DNA from: Escherichia coli
Lineage (GTDB): Bacteria; Pseudomonadota; Gammaproteobacteria; Enterobacterales; Enterobacteriaceae
Assembly: GCF_051903065.1 (NCBI RefSeq)
Contig: NZ_CP178438.1
Length of the DNA: 64,000 nucleotides
Strand: one strand, 5' to 3'
A program made the position numbers and the translations under genes. A model generated the notes under the pieces. That model was not told where the DNA came from, made no database searches, and saw only the letters and a list, made by a program, of their open reading frames with translations. This document shows, in pieces, positions 53,251 through 61,686 of the stretch. Position 1 is the stretch's first letter. Each line of letters begins with the position of its first letter.

Positions 53251-53294
53251 TCACGACACTGCTTATTGCTTTGATTTTATTCTTATCTTTCCCA

Positions 53295-53350
53295 TGGTAC
53301 CCGGAGCGGGACTTGAACCCGCACAGCGCGAACGCCGAGGGATTTTAAAT
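53295..53350 (-). other. 3' fragment (56 nt) of tRNA-Leu(UAA), att-site remnant
   Basis: revcomp ATTTAAAATCCCTCGGCGTTCGCGCTGTGCGGGTTCAAGTCCCGCTCCGGGTACCA = 3' part of leuZ from anticodon loop to CCA; 5' half absent. Confidence 0.85.
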
Positions 53351-53529
53351 TCTACGCAGGATCAATGAGTTACATAGCAGTGCATTGCGAAACTTTGCTG
53401 TAATTGTTTACTCATTTTACTGTAATTGGCAGTAAATAGATAGACTTGGATAACTTTGAGCACAGAATCTGCACAGGTAAGTCCCCTCTCACGGAGGCCT
53501 ACCTGTGCTATATCTATATGACTGCAAAG

Positions 53530-54171
53530 TTACGAGTTTGACTGGAAATCTTCAATTATCTTCTGATTGTAATCATCCAGATACTTTTGCAGTTCATCCC
53601 TGTCGATCAGACGTACCAAGGCTGATTCAGCTAACTCTTTCGCAGAGCGAGTGAGTAGGAATTAGTCACAACCATCGCCTCATCACAACCATAGAATGTT
53701 TTAGCAGAGATCACCTGCTGCACCGCCGAGTTACCTACAGAACCAGAATAATTTTTCGCCTGAATAACCATATCCTTACCAAATCGAGTGACGAAGAGAT
53801 CTGCCCCCTGATCTTGCGTTCTCTTGGTTTCTTTGACGTCATAGCCCATAGTCTGGAATACTTCCACAAGGAAATCTTCAAACTGGAAACCGTCCATTGC
53901 ATCAACTAAATACATGGTGACGAATTTGTTAGGGTTAAAATGTTCGAGCCGTGTAGCTAATCTATCAACCAGAATATCAAAATAAATATGTTCGCACACA
54001 GCTAAGTATTTTTTAACTTCATCAAATGAAACTAAAGGAACACCAGGCGTAGCCTCCACTTTTTCATTGAACTCTACTGATGAGAACTCTATTTTATTGC
54101 TCCATATATAGAATAGAAACAATGAAAGATCTGCCCTAAAAGTGGTACCCGCTTCCTCAATCCATGACTTC
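53530..54171 (-). pseudogene. Mrr-like (PD-(D/E)xK) restriction endonuclease pseudogene: 5' truncated by IS1, frameshift near 3' end
   Basis: ORF 53631..54185 has Mrr_cat-like ...GADLFVTRFGKDMVIQAKNYSGSVGNSAVQQV...; its apparent TTG start lies inside the IS1 end; -1 frame past the stop reads AKELAESALVRLIDRDELQKYLDDYNQKIIEDFQSNS. Confidence 0.7.
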
Positions 54172-54226
54172 GGTGATGCTGCCAACTTACTGATTTAGTG
54201 TATGATGGTGTTTTTGAGGTGCTCCA

Positions 54227-54502
54227 GTGGCTTCTGTTTCTATCAGCTGTCCCTCCTGTTCAGCTACTGACGGGGTGGTGCGTAACGGCAAAAGCACCGC
54301 CGGACATCAGCGCTATCTCTGCTCTCACTGCCGTAAAACATGGCAACTGCAGTTCACTTACACCGCTTCTCAACCCGGTACGCACCAGAAAATCATTGAT
54401 ATGGCCATGAATGGCGTTGGATGCCGGGCAACAGCCCGCATTATGGGCGTTGGCCTCAACACGATTTTACGTCACTTAAAAAACTCAGGCCGCAGTCGGT
54501 AA
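54227..54502 (+). CDS. insA: IS1 InsA
   Basis: 91-aa [25 protein letters not shown]... Confidence 0.95.
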
Positions 54503-54924
54503 CCTCGCGCATACAGCCGGGCAGTGACGTCATCGTCTGCGCGGAAATGGACGAACAGTGGGGCTATGTCGGGGCTAAATCGCGCCAGCGCTGGCTGTTT
54601 TACGCGTATGACAGGCTCCGGAAGACGGTTGTTGCGCACGTATTCGGTGAACGCACTATGGCGACGCTGGGGCGTCTTATGAGCCTGCTGTCACCCTTTG
54701 ACGTGGTGATATGGATGACGGATGGCTGGCCGCTGTATGAATCCCGCCTGAAGGGAAAGCTGCACGTAATCAGCAAGCGATATACGCAGCGAATTGAGCG
54801 GCATAACCTGAATCTGAGGCAGCACCTGGCACGGCTGGGACGGAAGTCGCTGTCGTTCTCAAAATCGGTGGAGCTGCATGACAAAGTCATCGGGCATTAT
54901 CTGAACATAAAACACTATCAATAA
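54421..54924 (+). CDS. insB: IS1 InsB (expressed as InsAB' by -1 frameshift at A6C, 54476..54484)
   Basis: 167-aa [19 protein letters not shown]...; slippery TTAAAAAAC present. Confidence 0.93.
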
Positions 54925-55001
54925 GTTGGAGTCATTACCGCCGCTTCACGCAATATCATTTCAGGCTGGCCCGGGAGCTTAATATTCCTCCCCAGGCAAT
55001 C

Positions 55002-55364
55002 GTGTATGCCAATCTACTGGCGTGGGATTACGACGGACTGACCCCTCTCAATCGCCCTCAAAATGAAGTGCAGGAAGTTATATTAGCCTCGCTGAAGCTG
55101 CTGGCGGTACAAATTAAACACCTTGAGCCTGATTTCATCATCTTTGCATCTGGAGCCCGGAGAACAGACTACATCATAAAACAGGTGCTTACTGAGCTGG
55201 GCGGCTATGAGACTTCTGCAGTCATTCCGGGGAAGCTATGGGAGTTCAAAACAGGTAATGCAATCTGTTTCAGAATTGCCCATCCAAGGGCTATGCGCGG
55301 ACACAAGAAGTACAGAGATGAGGTGATTGCACGAATTAAGCAACTTTGTACTCAGGGTGGCTAG
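55002..55364 (+). CDS. hypothetical protein, possibly 5'-truncated gene remnant
   Basis: 120-aa ORF from GTG; frame stays open back to the IS1 junction (54942), so likely a C-terminal fragment. Confidence 0.4.
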   Translation: MYANLLAWDYDGLTPLNRPQNEVQEVILASLKLLAVQIKHLEPDFIIFASGARRTDYIIKQVLTELGGYETSAVIPGKLWEFKTGNAICFRIAHPRAMRGHKKYRDEVIARIKQLCTQGG

Positions 55365-55541
55365 AGCATTACAGTTTGCTCAGCAGGCCCCCCCTTCCCG
55401 GAAGAGTACCGGAAAACAGGCAAAGCGGCCTGGTTCTCTATGCTGGAGGCGACACGTTCAATTCGGCATTGCCAGGCTGTAGATTGCAGCTCATTGCACC
55501 CCGTGAGCACAGGATATGCACAGGGCGTGAATTGCATGCAC

Positions 55542-55567
55542 AAAAAAACCACCCGGAGGTGGTTTCA
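55542..55567 (-). terminator. rho-independent terminator, repeat copy 2
   Basis: A7 + ccaccc-gga-ggtgg hairpin, homologous to 53228..53250. Confidence 0.7.
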
Positions 55568-55606
55568 CGACACTGCTTATTGCTTTGATTATTCTGATGT
55601 TTCCCA

Positions 55607-55662
55607 TGGTACCCGGAGTGGGACTTGAACCCACACAGCGCGAACGCCGAGGGATTTTAAAT
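55607..55662 (-). other. second 3' fragment of tRNA-Leu(UAA), diverged
   Basis: same 56-nt fragment with two substitutions (gagTggg / cccAcac) that stay base-paired in the T-stem. Confidence 0.85.
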
Positions 55663-55938
55663 TCTACGTAGGATCAATGAGTTACATAGCAGTGCATTGC
55701 GAAACTTTGCTGACGTTGAATGGTCGTCTTTGCAACCACTGGCAGAAAATGGATAGCCGTAGATTGCGTTGAGCACAGAAACAGCACAGGGTAATCGTCT
55801 ACCTGGTCCTGTAAAGGAGGTTGTTGCCACACAAGCTAAAGCGCTTGACCTGCCCCCAGTATTCGGTACAACTGTCAGTTAGTAATGGACTGACCCCACC
55901 CCGGTAGACGATCCTGCCCTATAGTTACCTTTAACTAA

Positions 55939-58900
55939 TTATGCCAATTCAGACTCAAACGCTGCATCATTCGCTTCAGCCTCTGCGCCATCAATTAATG
56001 CCAAGACTCGGTCAAGAAAGCGTTGCGCTTCGTATACATCTGTTGCTTGCCGCAGATAATGAGGTATTCGTTCAACAAACTCGGAACGTGATAAAGGCTG
56101 ATGTTCCAGCAAAGCCTCAAGCATTGCGGGCCGCAACAAACGACGATCAGCATCAACATTAGGAAGCTCAACCTCAATGACATGTGTGGCAAAATACTTA
56201 AGTTGCTCCTTAAGCCCCAAATTGGGCATAAGAGAATCAATTGAGTCAGACGCCACTTCAGCGCTTGACTCAATCGTTTCTACATATTCATAGGAAGGTA
56301 CAACAACGTCTGGAGCCAATGTTTTAAGCTCATGGAGTTTACGGATAATCGGAGATAGAACCTCATCAGGATTACTGAACCAATCAGTGGACCAAATGCG
56401 GCTAATTCTCCAACCCAAACGCTCCAGAACCTCTTGACGCAAACGGTCACGATCACGAGCAGATTTAGCTGAGTGATAAGCCGCACCATCACACTCTATG
56501 CCCATTAAGTAACGGCCAGGACAACCTGGATCTTTCACAGCTAGATCAATAAAGAATCCTGCAACCCCTACCTGAGGTTCACACTCAAACCCAGCGTGAT
56601 TGAGTGCTTCCATTACAGCAACCTCAAAGTCACTATCTGGAGCCCTGCCGGTATGCGTTGTGAGGGAATCTAGTTTGCCACTTTCGGCAAACTGTAAAAA
56701 ACCTTTCAACGAAATAACACCAAGTTTACTGATTTCACTCGTCAATACATCTTCAGAACGCATTGAACTAAACACATGCATCCGTTTTTTTGATCGAGTG
56801 AAAAGCACATTCAAGCGACGCCAGCCAACATCGGAATTGATAGGTCCAAAGCGTTGATAAACCTTTCCACCATGCTCAGAAGGTCCATAGGTAAAGGAAA
56901 TAAAGATTACATCACGCTCATCCCCTTGAACGTTCTCAAGGTTTTTCACAAAAAGTGGCTCTTCCATGGCATATAAGCCATCGATTGCATCGTTAAATTC
57001 AGGGCGATTTCGGCGCAATTCATCGATAGCGCGCTCAATTTGATCGCGTTGCTTGGAACTCATGGCCACTACCCCGAGTGACTCACCCGGCCGGTGTTGC
57101 GCATGATGAAGTACGGCCTCAGCAACTGCTTGGGCTTCTTCAATATTGTGTTGATTGGAGAACCGACCTTTTGACACATAGGTAAATTTAATCCCATACT
57201 CTGGAGACTCAGCATTTGGGGAAGGGAATATCACCAAATCACTGTTATAAAAATGGCGGTTAGAGTATGCAATCAACTTTTCATGTCGTGAACGATAGTG
57301 CCAACGCAAACGTCTCATAGGAAACAGTGGCAAAGCAGCATCCAAAATGCTGTCAGTATCACTTAAAGCCGCGGCATCATCGTCATCTTCTCCGTCGGCA
57401 CTTCGATCAAAGAAACTGGTTGGTGGTAGCTGTTTCGGGTCACCAACGACCACTAGTTGCTTGCCCCTCGCGATGACACCCAATGCATCCTCTGGCTTCA
57501 CCTGAGACGCTTCGTCCATCACCACCAGATCAAATTCCATTCGTCCAGGTTCTAGGTAATGAGCTGCTGACATTGGCCCCATCATGAAACAAGGTTTAAT
57601 TGCAACCAGCGCATTACATGCACGGTTAACCAATTGCCTAATTGGAATATGTCTGGTTTTTTTACCCAACTCATTTTTGATCAAAGCTAGTTCTGTATAT
57701 TCACTTTTCTTACCACCAGAATTCCCTTCTGGTATATTTCGGCAAGCAATTTTTGCTGCAATCCGCTGACGTTGTAATTCAATCAGTTTTTTATCGTAAT
57801 CTTTAAATGACTTCTGCAAAGCATTGCGCTGTGAGCCGGAAACTCTCATCAATTCAGGGTGGATGTGAATAACCTCCCGCGCCAGCTGGTCATGAATTGC
57901 TAATGCTAAACCCAATTCAACTTTTTCAATCGGGAGCGAGCCCGCAAGTACAGCACTCCAGATTCGCTGCAATCCATTTTCATGCATCTGCTCGTAACAA
58001 CGAATAAAGTTAACCCACCCGTTCAACCAACGGGGTTGCTGTATTGCTCTTTCGTTGCGCTCGATTAATGTATTAAGAGAACCATCAGTCGACTTGAGCC
58101 ACTGACTCCGCTCTAACTTTGTTTCTAGCGCATATAACTCAGCATTTTTAATCTGTTCATTCCATTTCGAAACTATTTCCCCACCATCACGACATAGTAA
58201 ATCGTAATCACTACCACTAGCCAAATGTCTGATCTGGGTAGCCAAGGATACGCAATTTATCTTATCAACCAGTTGCTCGGCAAAATTCAGCGTGTCGTTA
58301 ATAGTGTCTAACGTCAGTTGATTATTTTTATACGCACCGCAAGCCAATGGGGTTAATTGTAAAAACGCCCCTAACTGTAACGAGTCATTTTCAAGGGATA
58401 TCTGAAGATCGTTTATGTTTTGCAAAATCTCGGAGGAATGAGTCATCTGCTCTAATGATATATCTGGATTGATAAACCATCCCTGCAAGGCAATGAGAGT
58501 ATTCCGCACCTGTCGGTAAGATTGCATCAATACACCTTGCTCACCTAACCAAGATGCATGTTCTTCCAACAAGCTAGAAATACGCGGTAATAACTTAGCC
58601 TCGTGCTCGACCCGTTTAACCAAAGTCATTAATCTTGAGCTAATCTGCGATTTCTCGATTAAATGCACACCTTTGATAATCTCACCATCTAGGTTAAATA
58701 ATCCAGAGCCTATCGCAACTCGCTTTCCAAAACCTATCCCGTAACAAGCTCGGACCTTCTTGTACCAATCACGCAATAACATGAGTTGTTCACAGTCGGT
58801 GTCCAACCCTCGGAATGCATTACCAAGTTGATTACCAAAGTCACTTTGTTCAAACCGTTGTAACAGCTCCGAATACTTGAGCAAATCAGCTGAGCAGCGT

Positions 58901-61686
58901 TTTAACTCAGCAAACTTAGTGTCAGGCTTACGAGATTGCGCCATGAGCAGTGCCTTGGCACTACGCCAATCACTCTTAAACCATGCAAATAATCCCCCTT
59001 GCTGGATAACAGCAACGGCATGCGCGAGCATCTCTTGGGAAGGCAACTGGTCCAATTGATACAAAGTAGATAGACCATCTCTTAAAGGACGCAATGTTTC
59101 GATTTGACACATTAAGTCGCGCAATACTGCATCGATATCATCATCATCAAAAAGAGGATCTCGAACTCTAATAAGCTCAGTCGGTAAAGCACCCAGAATC
59201 GACAACAACTCAGAGCAGAATAGCAATCCAGCTTGCGAATCATCGATATACGAAGCAATACCATCTGGCAAAGCATTTTTGAAATCGTTTAATTGCGCAT
59301 AAATAGATGATAACTCATCATGAATTGATTGGATGGATTCAAGCCACCTGACCAAATCACGTAAAGTGAAATCCTCTGCTGCACCATATTTTTCCAGCTC
59401 TTCACGAGGAAAGTCACACGATTGTCCTTGTTCTAAAAGTCGTAGCTTTTGAGGCTCGATAACCTGGCTCAAGGCCACATAATGACCTTGTAGCAACTCG
59501 AACCTATCTAAATAGTGACGCACCCGTGCAATGGCATCGGGTGAATCTAGCTCACTAAGTGCTGGGAAATGCTCTGAACCACACAACACTGGAAGATTCG
59601 ACTGATCTTCTACCAATTGCTCAATATATTGAAGCGTATTAAGGCTTTCGCCTTCTAACGCCCACTTATCTACATATTCTTGATAGCTATGTTGAAAGTC
59701 GATAATTGATGTCTGCCAAGTTTGTAGCAAATCGACTATACGAGCGCTGTCAAACAATTGAATTTGTGTGTTATTCACACCGCTCCAAGGGTGCTCATAT
59801 ATTTCTGCATTAGCCCCCACCTGCTCACGAACCTCTTTGTAGATGCGGCTAAACTCTACTATTTGGTCACGCAGCCGTAATTGGGTCACTTTATCCAACT
59901 GCTTCCCGGAAAGGTTTTCGATATGAAGTGCTGTTGCATCAATATCTAATTTGTGACGATAACGGGTTGCACCACTCAAAATCTGATGGATCGTTTTGCC
60001 TGTTTGCGCCCATTGGTTATTGATCAATGCGGCATATTCATTGAGCTGCTGCTTAAGATCTTCATAACGCAAAATCTGAGCATCAATCTCTTCCATAGTA
60101 GGCATGGTCGCCTGACTCACCAAGCGAGCATTAATATCATCCAGCACCTTGCGCTTATGAGTTTTATGACTGTGCAACTCTAAGCAAAATTGACCTAGCC
60201 CCGCACGATCCAAGCGACGTTTGACGACCTCCAGTGCAGCCATCTTCTCTGCCACAAACAGGACTTTCTTACCGTTGAGCAGAGCTGCTGCAATCAAGTT
60301 GGTGATCGTTTGTGATTTGCCACTACCAGGAGGGCCCTCAATGACTAAGTTTTGACCACGGATAGCATCGATCAACGCACTGTGCTGCGAGCTATCCGCA
60401 TCATCGATTAGTGGAACCTTGTCATGAATATCAGGGTAACTATCGATGCAGTACTCATGCTGACCGAAGCCACCAGGTAAGCCGGAATTCTCTTGACCAC
60501 AGCTCTGACTGGTGAAAAAGCGACGAATTACTTCATGAGACAATATATTGCGCTTGTCACAAGGCCAGCGGGCAGGATCGAGGTCAAGATACATCATCAT
60601 CTTGCCAAAATTGAGCAAGCTAAGTGCACCATAACGTTTCACAGACCATTTAGGTTTGTGCTGCTCTACAACCTTCTTCACCGAAGCAAAATAAGACTCT
60701 GGAGTTTCCTCTTCATTGAACAAAGGAAGAGCGAGGCCAAAGTCAGCCTGAAGTTTTTCCTTCAAAGAGAGATTGGGCAAAATATCTTCACCCGTGTAAT
60801 AAAGTTGAAACTTGTAAAGACCATCCTTCGGATCTAATTTTCCTCGTTCACATCTCACCGGAATTGTAAATAACGGTGCATAACGTGCCTTTTCAGAGGA
60901 ATCGCTTTCATACCACTCAAGGAACCCTAACGCCAAATACAAGATGTTGGCGCCACTCTCCTCCAAAGCAGTTTGAGCCTTACCATAGATGGCGCGCAAA
61001 CAAGCTTCCAGTTCATTTGGATAAAGCAGAGCCTGTATCCGATTATCGTCATGAGAGGGATTGGAAGAAGATATACTAATCTCATTCCCAGCCTTTGCCT
61101 GTCGTTCAAAATCCTCAAGCCCTTCATAGCCTGCTAAGCAGCACGCCTCCTTCAACGCTGACAAAGCTATACCTTGATTAACGTATTCAGAACGAATCCC
61201 TGTTAATTTTCCATTCTGGCCTTGGGCATATTGCAAGATAAACTGATGGGCTTTTTCCAGCAACTCTCTATCTGAATCAGAAACAACCGTTTTATGGCTA
61301 TCTGGTAAATCAAAATCTGTACGGATTCCTAAGACGTGCGCCCAATCCTTAGCGCTAGGATGAGCTCTTAACTGTATATCTTTACCATCTGGCCCAACTT
61401 TGAGATAGCCATGCTCTAACAGCTGCGCTCTAGTTGGATCGGGCACAGGAGCAAATTCCATCGGGATTTCCGAGCAAAGGGTTTCATAAAGCTGTTCTGG
61501 TAATTCATCAACAATACGTAGTGAAGACCCTTTTTGAGTGATAGGGAAATTCAAAAGTCGATTTCGAGACGTAAGGTCCAATAACTTCTTACGCATAGCC
61601 TCGAGGGAAGTCAGAATAAAATCTGAGCCTCCTTGATTGAGTTCCTCTGCTGTAGAGGTATCTACAGTCGACATAATGTTCTCCAT
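55939..61686 (-). CDS. giant helicase-nuclease (1915 aa): DUF4011-like N-terminus, Upf1-like SF1 helicase with ~940-aa insertion, C-terminal Vsr/DUF559-like nuclease domain
   Basis: LLDLTSRNRLLNF and LALGFLEWYE near N-terminus; Walker A GPPGSGKS (res 451-458, nt 60313..60336); DEAS (res 1391-1394, nt 57505..57516); VVVGDPKQLPP; GDERDVIFIS; GWRRLNVLFTRSKKRMHVF; C-terminal FFIDLA...IECDGAAYHSAKSARDRDRLRQEVLERLGWRISRIW (nt about 56377..56628). Confidence 0.85.
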   Translation of the reverse strand: MENIMSTVDTSTAEELNQGGSDFILTSLEAMRKKLLDLTSRNRLLNFPITQKGSSLRIVDELPEQLYETLCSEIPMEFAPVPDPTRAQLLEHGYLKVGPDGKDIQLRAHPSAKDWAHVLGIRTDFDLPDSHKTVVSDSDRELLEKAHQFILQYAQGQNGKLTGIRSEYVNQGIALSALKEACCLAGYEGLEDFERQAKAGNEISISSSNPSHDDNRIQALLYPNELEACLRAIYGKAQTALEESGANILYLALGFLEWYESDSSEKARYAPLFTIPVRCERGKLDPKDGLYKFQLYYTGEDILPNLSLKEKLQADFGLALPLFNEEETPESYFASVKKVVEQHKPKWSVKRYGALSLLNFGKMMMYLDLDPARWPCDKRNILSHEVIRRFFTSQSCGQENSGLPGGFGQHEYCIDSYPDIHDKVPLIDDADSSQHSALIDAIRGQNLVIEGPPGSGKSQTITNLIAAALLNGKKVLFVAEKMAALEVVKRRLDRAGLGQFCLELHSHKTHKRKVLDDINARLVSQATMPTMEEIDAQILRYEDLKQQLNEYAALINNQWAQTGKTIHQILSGATRYRHKLDIDATALHIENLSGKQLDKVTQLRLRDQIVEFSRIYKEVREQVGANAEIYEHPWSGVNNTQIQLFDSARIVDLLQTWQTSIIDFQHSYQEYVDKWALEGESLNTLQYIEQLVEDQSNLPVLCGSEHFPALSELDSPDAIARVRHYLDRFELLQGHYVALSQVIEPQKLRLLEQGQSCDFPREELEKYGAAEDFTLRDLVRWLESIQSIHDELSSIYAQLNDFKNALPDGIASYIDDSQAGLLFCSELLSILGALPTELIRVRDPLFDDDDIDAVLRDLMCQIETLRPLRDGLSTLYQLDQLPSQEMLAHAVAVIQQGGLFAWFKSDWRSAKALLMAQSRKPDTKFAELKRCSADLLKYSELLQRFEQSDFGNQLGNAFRGLDTDCEQLMLLRDWYKKVRACYGIGFGKRVAIGSGLFNLDGEIIKGVHLIEKSQISSRLMTLVKRVEHEAKLLPRISSLLEEHASWLGEQGVLMQSYRQVRNTLIALQGWFINPDISLEQMTHSSEILQNINDLQISLENDSLQLGAFLQLTPLACGAYKNNQLTLDTINDTLNFAEQLVDKINCVSLATQIRHLASGSDYDLLCRDGGEIVSKWNEQIKNAELYALETKLERSQWLKSTDGSLNTLIERNERAIQQPRWLNGWVNFIRCYEQMHENGLQRIWSAVLAGSLPIEKVELGLALAIHDQLAREVIHIHPELMRVSGSQRNALQKSFKDYDKKLIELQRQRIAAKIACRNIPEGNSGGKKSEYTELALIKNELGKKTRHIPIRQLVNRACNALVAIKPCFMMGPMSAAHYLEPGRMEFDLVVMDEASQVKPEDALGVIARGKQLVVVGDPKQLPPTSFFDRSADGEDDDDAAALSDTDSILDAALPLFPMRRLRWHYRSRHEKLIAYSNRHFYNSDLVIFPSPNAESPEYGIKFTYVSKGRFSNQHNIEEAQAVAEAVLHHAQHRPGESLGVVAMSSKQRDQIERAIDELRRNRPEFNDAIDGLYAMEEPLFVKNLENVQGDERDVIFISFTYGPSEHGGKVYQRFGPINSDVGWRRLNVLFTRSKKRMHVFSSMRSEDVLTSEISKLGVISLKGFLQFAESGKLDSLTTHTGRAPDSDFEVAVMEALNHAGFECEPQVGVAGFFIDLAVKDPGCPGRYLMGIECDGAAYHSAKSARDRDRLRQEVLERLGWRISRIWSTDWFSNPDEVLSPIIRKLHELKTLAPDVVVPSYEYVETIESSAEVASDSIDSLMPNLGLKEQLKYFATHVIEVELPNVDADRRLLRPAMLEALLEHQPLSRSEFVERIPHYLRQATDVYEAQRFLDRVLALIDGAEAEANDAAFESELA

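Follow-up and report, generated by a model that had tools for sequence, protein, structure and literature searches.

A probable IS1-truncated remnant of a leuZ island gene in Escherichia coli and the predicted uracil-DNA glycosylase fold of its intact family

Within a 64,000-nt stretch of Escherichia coli DNA, referred to here as the window, an open reading frame (ORF) at positions 54940-55364 starts directly at the right end of a complete IS1 element. An earlier note, made from the letters alone, suspected this frame to be the C-terminal remnant of an island gene whose remainder had been lost in the IS1 event. The locus thus raised the question of whether the frame is a small gene in its own right or a piece of a larger one and, in the latter case, what the intact gene encodes. 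Our analysis led us to conclude, with a probability of roughly 0.93, that 54940-55364 is a defunct remnant, the 3′ part of an accessory gene whose usual place is between the integrase and the attachment (att) site of genomic islands at the tRNA gene leuZ.

The identity of the fragment was established by comparison with intact relatives. A megablast search of 54940-55600 against 5,426 complete E. coli genomes placed the window as E. coli chromosome and found this segment whole in 526 of them. In strain ECCHD184, the counterpart is a 741-bp coding sequence for a 246-aa protein (WP_032187455.1, labelled “hypothetical protein”), which is flanked on one side by a site-specific integrase and on the other by the 3′ end of the tRNA-Leu(UAA) gene leuZ in the glyW-cysT-leuZ cluster. 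The identity to the ECCHD184 locus starts exactly at 54940, the first base past IS1, which corresponds to nt 317 of the 741 (position 2 of codon 106). From this base onwards the fragment (54940-55364, plus strand, nt 317-741 of the gene) showed 0 differences in 425 nt from the 3′ end of the ECCHD184 gene (100% nucleotide identity), so that the suspicion of a C-terminal remnant was borne out. The fragment keeps codons 107-246 and the stop codon (140 of the 246 codons), as well as codon 106 minus its first base, and R107, at 54942, is the first whole native codon. Over 661 nt, the sole difference from ECCHD184 is one additional base in a poly-C run at ~55388-55395, located 3′ of the fragment. 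At the equivalent locus of strain 23CRST027, which is 100% identical to the window over 54000-55100, the RefSeq/PGAP annotation lists a pseudogene, “hypothetical protein; incomplete; missing N-terminus”.

The frame itself, RRFTQYHFRLARELNIPPQAIVYANLLAWDYDGLTPLNRPQ...RIAHPRAMRGHKKYRDEVIARIKQLCTQGG followed by a stop, spans 54939 to the stop codon at 55362-55364. That it is open from the IS1 junction, as noted earlier, proved correct with one amendment, namely that the openness reaches 58 nt leftward inside IS1 to a TGA at 54879-54881, with zero start codons before 55002. The GTG at 55002-55004 (plus strand), which opens a 120-aa ORF and which the earlier note had already doubted as a native start, is the internal Val127 codon (QAIVYANL) of the intact gene, and the 120-aa ORF is a mechanical ORF call of the fragment frame. 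Upstream of this GTG there is only an AGG triplet, 5 nt away, and the native ATG of the intact gene carries an AGGA Shine-Dalgarno sequence at 7-nt spacing. A scan of 54700-55700 for sigma-70-like promoters returned no site, and the one terminator-like site in this interval, at 55417-55432, is within chance expectation.

These observations bear on the alternative that the GTG ORF at 55002-55364 is a real small gene, perhaps expressed by read-through from IS1 or from an outward promoter, and that it produces a functional half-domain protein. The frame is intact and free of sequence decay, a point that weighs against a dead gene, though it is also expected if the event was recent. The ORF further retains a conserved asparagine (N130) and the conserved H220-P221 segment of the parent protein, and insertion sequences can drive neighbouring genes. 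However, the start is an internal codon with only the AGG triplet upstream and with no sigma-70-like promoter in the scanned interval, and the fragment lacks β1, the core strand of the sheet, together with the putative motif A described below. Moreover, the IS1|gene-fragment junction was found in only 2 of the 5,426 complete E. coli genomes, those of the related isolates 23CRST027 and 23CRST031, with no sign of selection. The lengths of the homologues pointed the same way. The earlier note had proposed a comparison of lengths, in which homologues as short as the fragment would speak for a small gene, and the full-length homologues turned out to be ~245 aa long. Among 186 family matches at E ≤ 1e-3 in a collection of 5.8 billion proteins, and among the 472 representative clusters of the parent family recovered by an exhaustive profile search, complete homologues are almost all 240-260 aa in length. 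A few members reach ~340-365 aa by means of an N-terminal extension, and the shorter ones among the listed entries represent partial matches; neither search turned up a conserved class of proteins of 120-140 aa. We consider a functional small gene highly improbable. With β1, motif A and its own start and promoter gone, the fragment should, as judged from its sequence, yield no active protein.

If the frame is a remnant, the manner in which the gene was broken has to be explained. The IS1 element (54172-54939, plus strand) is a complete 768-bp copy of the IS1A family, with insA/insB at 54227-54924, and its right end is the truncation junction. It begins with GGTGATGCTGCC and finishes with GAGTCATTACC, is flanked by CATGACTTC on the left and GCCGCTTCA on the right, and is the only IS1 copy within the window. 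A simple insertion of IS1 is recognised by a flanking duplication of 8-11 bp, usually 9 bp; a 9-bp target-site duplication was looked for at the two ends of the element and none was present. The sequence on the left is the remnant of another gene, which runs in the opposite direction (53529-54171, minus strand) and encodes a restriction endonuclease; its N-terminus has been lost at the IS1 left end, and its intact form, in strain W5-6, is 1182 bp long. By eye, this remnant looks Mrr-like. In a BLAST comparison of the whole ECCHD184 locus with the window, neither the 5′ 316 nt of the gene nor the integrase found a match, in agreement with the earlier proposal that the remainder of the gene was lost in the IS1 event.

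The completeness of IS1 and its position exactly at the break would fit a simple insertion into an intact gene, with the other half lying beyond the element and with excision being restorative. This explanation was rejected as exceedingly improbable, since the left flank belongs to the opposite-strand restriction endonuclease remnant, no 9-bp repeat borders the element, and the 5′ part of the gene and the integrase are missing from the window. An inversion involving a second IS1 was likewise rejected, the window containing a single IS1 and no 5′ gene part. The lack of a target-site duplication, the different truncated gene at the left flank and the missing 5′ part therefore indicate a deletion or an IS1-IS1 recombination.

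The undeleted layout is illustrated by strain ECNB21-M121, which has the identical junction between the restriction endonuclease gene and the left end of IS1. In this strain, IS1 is cut after 38 bp by IS903B, beyond which follow a helix-turn-helix regulator, DUF726, DUF2787, two hypothetical genes, the integrase, the intact 741-bp gene and leuZ, such that the two junction points are separated by ~7.2 kb. ECNB21-M121 was rejected as the direct ancestor, as 6 of 425 nt distinguish its allele from the fragment, and it serves only as an illustration. This comparison suggests that IS1 had been joined to the restriction endonuclease gene before the deletion in the window took place. According to the proposed course of events, the left end of IS1 would already have been joined to the truncated restriction endonuclease gene when its right end became joined to nt 317, either through intramolecular transposition of IS1, giving an adjacent deletion, or because two IS1 copies recombined. 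At least 38 IS1-matching places are listed in the chromosome record of each of 23CRST027 and 23CRST031, and the sequence of the window appears equally compatible with both routes and does not discriminate between them. The event would have removed the promoter, the start and the first 105 codons of the gene, as well as the integrase and other island genes, amounting to ~6-7 kb if the ancestor resembled ECNB21-M121. A complete IS1 directly adjoining a gene fragment, in the absence of a target-site duplication and of the flanking genes, is the textbook signature of IS1-promoted deletion or recombination between insertion sequences. The locus shares these features with the IS1-mediated adjacent deletions of other E. 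coli islands and shows nothing unusual, the only notable point being that the island integrase was also removed, which fixed the decayed island in place.

The remnant lies in an array of islands at leuZ. No intact tRNA gene was detected in the window by ARAGORN; two 56-nt 3′ fragments of leuZ are present instead, both on the minus strand. The first (53295-53350) adjoins yecA and forms the distal att repeat of the island array, and the second (55607-55662), also an att repeat, marks the right-hand border of the decayed island. The two fragments differ at two positions (C/T and G/A), and these changes would leave a stem pair intact; the copy at 55607-55662 is the variant carried by islands, in which the T-stem change is compensatory, and the copy at 53295-53350 appears to be the native K-12 version of leuZ. 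Each fragment carries ~75 bp of tRNA-downstream sequence, and the distal end of the older island is similar to the beginning of the second one, 53277-53400 and 55589-55712 being 96% identical. The matching sequence to the right of both leuZ copies therefore indicates two islands of one family in tandem.

The whole older island (53351-55606) consists of the distal end, the restriction endonuclease remnant, IS1, the glycosylase-like remnant and the tRNA-downstream copy. It now measures 2.3 kb and is unable to excise itself because it has no integrase. The array has the same 56-nt leuZ direct repeats and the serial islands with similar distal ends that are found where tRNA-integrating islands accrete in tandem. 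The direct repeats derive from the 3′ end of the tRNA gene, and a tyrosine integrase adjoins the tRNA gene in intact relatives and is deleted from the older island of the window, which differs from such islands in having lost most of its cargo as well.

The second island can be followed in 23CRST027, where it is ~35 kb long and carries Hhe, two DUF262 genes, a type I restriction-modification (R-M) system, PolB and others. In the window, it is represented by a helicase-type gene of 1915 aa at 55939-61686 (minus strand), annotated in RefSeq as anti-phage protein Hhe (DUF4011). The right end of the second island in 23CRST027 is formed by a site-specific integrase, an intact copy of the gene (WP_089655401.1) and an intact leuZ. 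This copy (locus L058, 37411-38151) is found ~35 kb rightward of the fragment, beyond the window. Between it and the fragment 13 of 425 nt differ, so that the two represent separate acquisitions rather than a duplication. The later island would have integrated into leuZ and pushed the decayed island away from the tRNA gene, bringing with it an integrase and an intact copy of the gene in addition to Hhe, GmrSD-like genes and the type I R-M system. To judge from this second copy, the 23CRST027 genome has probably not lost the function of the gene.

We then turn to what the intact gene encodes, a question that direct searches left without an answer. The intact 246-aa protein had no match in Pfam, PADLOC or, by phmmer, in PDB; its only NCBIfam match was at the chance level (E = 0.059), as was the only Pfam match of the fragment alone (Fucosidase_C, E = 0.25), and a narrow family profile (A2) gave chance matches only among PDB sequences. 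Only a broadened profile and structure prediction yielded a family, thereby supplying the family search that the earlier note, which had named no family, had asked for. An AlphaFold2 model of the intact protein built from an alignment of 37 homologues reached a predicted local distance difference test score (pLDDT) of 91.1 and a predicted template modelling score (pTM) of 0.90. In a Foldseek search of PDB with this model, the top 50 matches all belonged to the uracil-DNA glycosylase (UDG) superfamily (family 4, UdgX, SMUG1 and TDG), the best being 4zby (E = 2.6e-5), with template modelling (TM) scores of 0.4-0.58. The fold of the parent protein, of the α/β/α type around a central parallel β-sheet, can be superposed on known UDGs. 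Consistent with this result, a broad 70-sequence profile (A4) matched the family-4 UDG of S. tokodaii (4zbx, E = 4.1e-5), and the profile alignment placed N130, at the end of β2, on the TN motif and H220-P221 on HPAA.

The conserved residues of the family fall at the positions expected to be catalytic. The alignment of 37 homologues contains invariant GRETxGWN, N130, WDY and CFRIAHPR...GH segments. Across the 70 sequences of the broad profile, G50, N130 and R217 are invariant, and E52, W56, H220 and P221 are conserved at ≥90%, down to ~25% identity. The equivalent of motif B, CFRIAHPR, is present after the last core β-strand, H220 and P221 remaining at ≥90% in the 70 sequences down to 22% identity. 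The putative motif A, after the strand at residues 46-50, reads GRETAGWN, which, unlike the motif A of every named family, contains no proline. The intact protein is predicted to flip a base out of DNA and to cleave its N-glycosidic bond. The catalytic elements proposed for this would be the loop of motif A (G50-R-E52), Asn130, which closes β2, and His220-Pro221, which follows β4. Sub-threshold matches to the Pfam family PF03167 were obtained for 14 of the 37 members (best E = 0.0016), and the names of some UniRef and NCBI homologues already read “uracil-DNA glycosylase-like”.

The closest relatives by structure are the family 4 UDGs (S. tokodaii 4ZBX/4ZBY, T. maritima 1L9G and T. thermophilus 1UI0), which gave the best structural and the only significant profile matches. 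The parent protein and family 4 UDGs have in common a loop after β1, an Asn that ends β2 and a His-Pro after the last strand. They share only ~13-15% identity, however, and the parent has GRETAGWN in place of GEAPG. The four Cys residues that bind the 4Fe-4S cluster of family 4 are absent from the parent family, in which C215 is the sole conserved Cys, and the parent has an extra N-terminal segment of 45 residues and an insertion at residues 58-105. We conclude from the profiles and the model that the parent is a divergent UDG-superfamily protein outside the named families. The fragment, starting at codon 106/107, does not hold a complete catalytic domain: it retains β2 with N130, β3, β4 and H220-P221, and is unable to form a UDG domain because β1 (residues 46-50) and the motif-A loop (G50/E52) are lacking.

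The distribution of the intact gene is that of an accessory gene. It was found in 531 of the 5,426 complete E. coli genomes (~10%), always in the chromosome and always as “hypothetical protein”. It lies between an integrase and leuZ in E. coli, Enterobacter, Citrobacter, Franconibacter, Buttiauxella and Shimwellia, with 79-98% identity across genera. In 12-13 enterobacterial loci, it is always this gene that separates the integrase from the att site at leuZ, with transcription divergent from int and a gap of ~50-80 bp. In Kosakonia, the gene persists intact next to leuZ without an integrase; thus, Kosakonia sp. S29 (locus L021, 7370-9278) carries an intact member alone between tRNA-Ser and leuZ, which suggests that the gene was kept for its own sake after the island had decayed. 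The family was absent from 50,697 phage records and is rare on plasmids. Outside Enterobacterales, the neighbourhoods are almost wholly different between loci, with no adjacent integrase or tRNA gene.

Only a C-terminal piece of the gene was also observed in other genomes (L055, 8001-8319; L052, 1-192; L056, 8001-8192; L057, 1-105; and E. coli AST46). Just beyond this piece are tRNA genes in Atlantibacter (L055) and Endozoicomonas (L056), and pgsA/uvrC homologues in Citrobacter amalonaticus (L052). Decay from the integrase side that leaves the att-proximal 3′ end seems to recur.

The genes found near family members include ZacB/ZacC, GmrSD-like proteins, PDC-S26, WYL regulators, ADP-ribosylglycohydrolase, and Mrr with type I R-M systems, as well as mad2/3, AriA/GajA-type ATPases, an HpaII-type R-M system, Hhe, integrases, transposases and ordinary flanking genes. 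In one group of non-enteric members, the gene has a constant companion. A gene of ~109 aa was found immediately upstream, often overlapping the start, in 17 of 17 loci of a group with 53-56% identity that includes Stutzerimonas, Marinobacter, Halopseudomonas, Pseudoalteromonas, Halomonas and Methylotuvimicrobium. In proteins of 337-365 aa, a domain homologous to this 109-aa partner is fused N-terminally to the glycosylase-like domain (BLASTP E = 1e-15). The predicted fold of the partner resembles immunity proteins of nuclease toxins (EsaG/BH3703). In four loci (L036, L037, L038 and L040), an ADP-ribosylglycohydrolase gene adjoins the pair of partner and glycosylase-like genes, with a WYL regulator nearby.

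These features recall the Brig proteins. Brig1 is a UDG-fold antiphage glycosylase that excises α-glucosyl-5-hydroxymethylcytosine (PMC11078745), Brig2 excises modified thymidines (10.1101/2025.10.29.685425), and Brig3 excises 5-hydroxymethylcytosine and works with an accessory protein, BapA (PMC13160076). The best structural match of Brig1 was the same family-4 UDG of S. tokodaii (PMC11078745), and both Brig1 and Brig3 adjoin ADP-ribosyl glycohydrolase genes (PMC11078745; PMC13160076), a neighbour that they have in common with the four loci of the parent family. Compared by description, Brig1/2/3 and the parent family are alike in being divergent UDG-fold single proteins, named “hypothetical” and found in defence islands or mobile elements; the descriptive lists of neighbours likewise place the parent genes, which are host-encoded, in such surroundings. 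The Brig3 gene overlaps that of a small accessory protein within an operon of two genes, as the genes of non-enteric members overlap that of their 109-aa partner. The partner is upstream in the parent family, whereas BapA is downstream in the Brig3 locus, and the predicted fold of the partner is EsaG-like, whereas an ASCH-like fold has been reported for BapA. Brig1 has only 42 PSI-BLAST homologues, mostly from Actinobacteria (PMC11078745). The parent family is not the Brig1 family proper because it occurs in 531 complete E. coli genomes, as opposed to the 42 mostly actinobacterial Brig1 homologues, and searches of PDB sequences with the parent protein and its profiles returned no Brig entry.

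On the strength of this analogy, we tentatively favour a Brig-like role for the intact family, in which the most likely target would be a modified base in invading phage DNA, as it is for Brig1/2/3. Taken in full, the proposal is that the intact ~245-aa proteins may be previously unrecognised Brig-like antiviral DNA glycosylases, found across Gammaproteobacteria and represented by no Pfam, NCBIfam or PADLOC model, with the 109-aa partner controlling or assisting them in non-enterics; we put this fuller version forward as conjectural and somewhat short of an even chance. Several points speak against the mechanism predicted for the intact protein. No member reached the gathering score of PF03167 (best, among distant members, 21.1 versus 24.3 bits), and PADLOC holds no model for the parent family. 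The lists of neighbours are descriptive and were compiled without a background comparison, so that no enrichment is claimed from them. A role in the biology of the island could be another explanation for the fixed place of the gene next to int and att in the enterobacterial islands.

The latter point leads to the alternative that the parent is not a defence glycosylase at all, being instead a repair UDG of the housekeeping type or an island factor that acts, for example, on att or replication intermediates during excision and integration. The 12-13 enterobacterial loci in which the gene, divergent from int, stands fixed between it and the leuZ att site would suit an island factor, and the canonical UDG families do repair uracil. 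The loci outside Enterobacterales, on the other hand, have no adjacent integrase or tRNA gene and highly variable neighbourhoods, and Kosakonia keeps the gene intact without the integrase. The presence in only ~10% of E. coli genomes, which all have ung and mug, also counts against this alternative, and the neighbours of the gene are often defence genes. We regard a repair or island function as less likely than not, though as the chief competing explanation.

For the genome that carries it, the remnant at 54940-55364 is ordinary genome decay, already flagged as a pseudogene in RefSeq, and the finding of the fragment itself matters little, a suspected pseudogene having been traced to a textbook IS1 event. 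More is documented by the surrounding locus, which records the tandem accretion of islands at leuZ and the immobilisation of the older island through the IS1-associated loss of its integrase. With Hhe, the R-M system, the DUF262 genes, PolB and a second integrase, leuZ is a large defence-island hotspot. If the Brig-like role is true, the fragment would be what is left of a ruined defence gene whose place was taken by a fresh copy on the following island. The parent gene, until now only a “hypothetical protein” in 531 genomes, gains a fold assignment, and the family becomes a reasonable and cheap candidate for antiphage testing, a lead that concerns the intact gene elsewhere and not the fragment.
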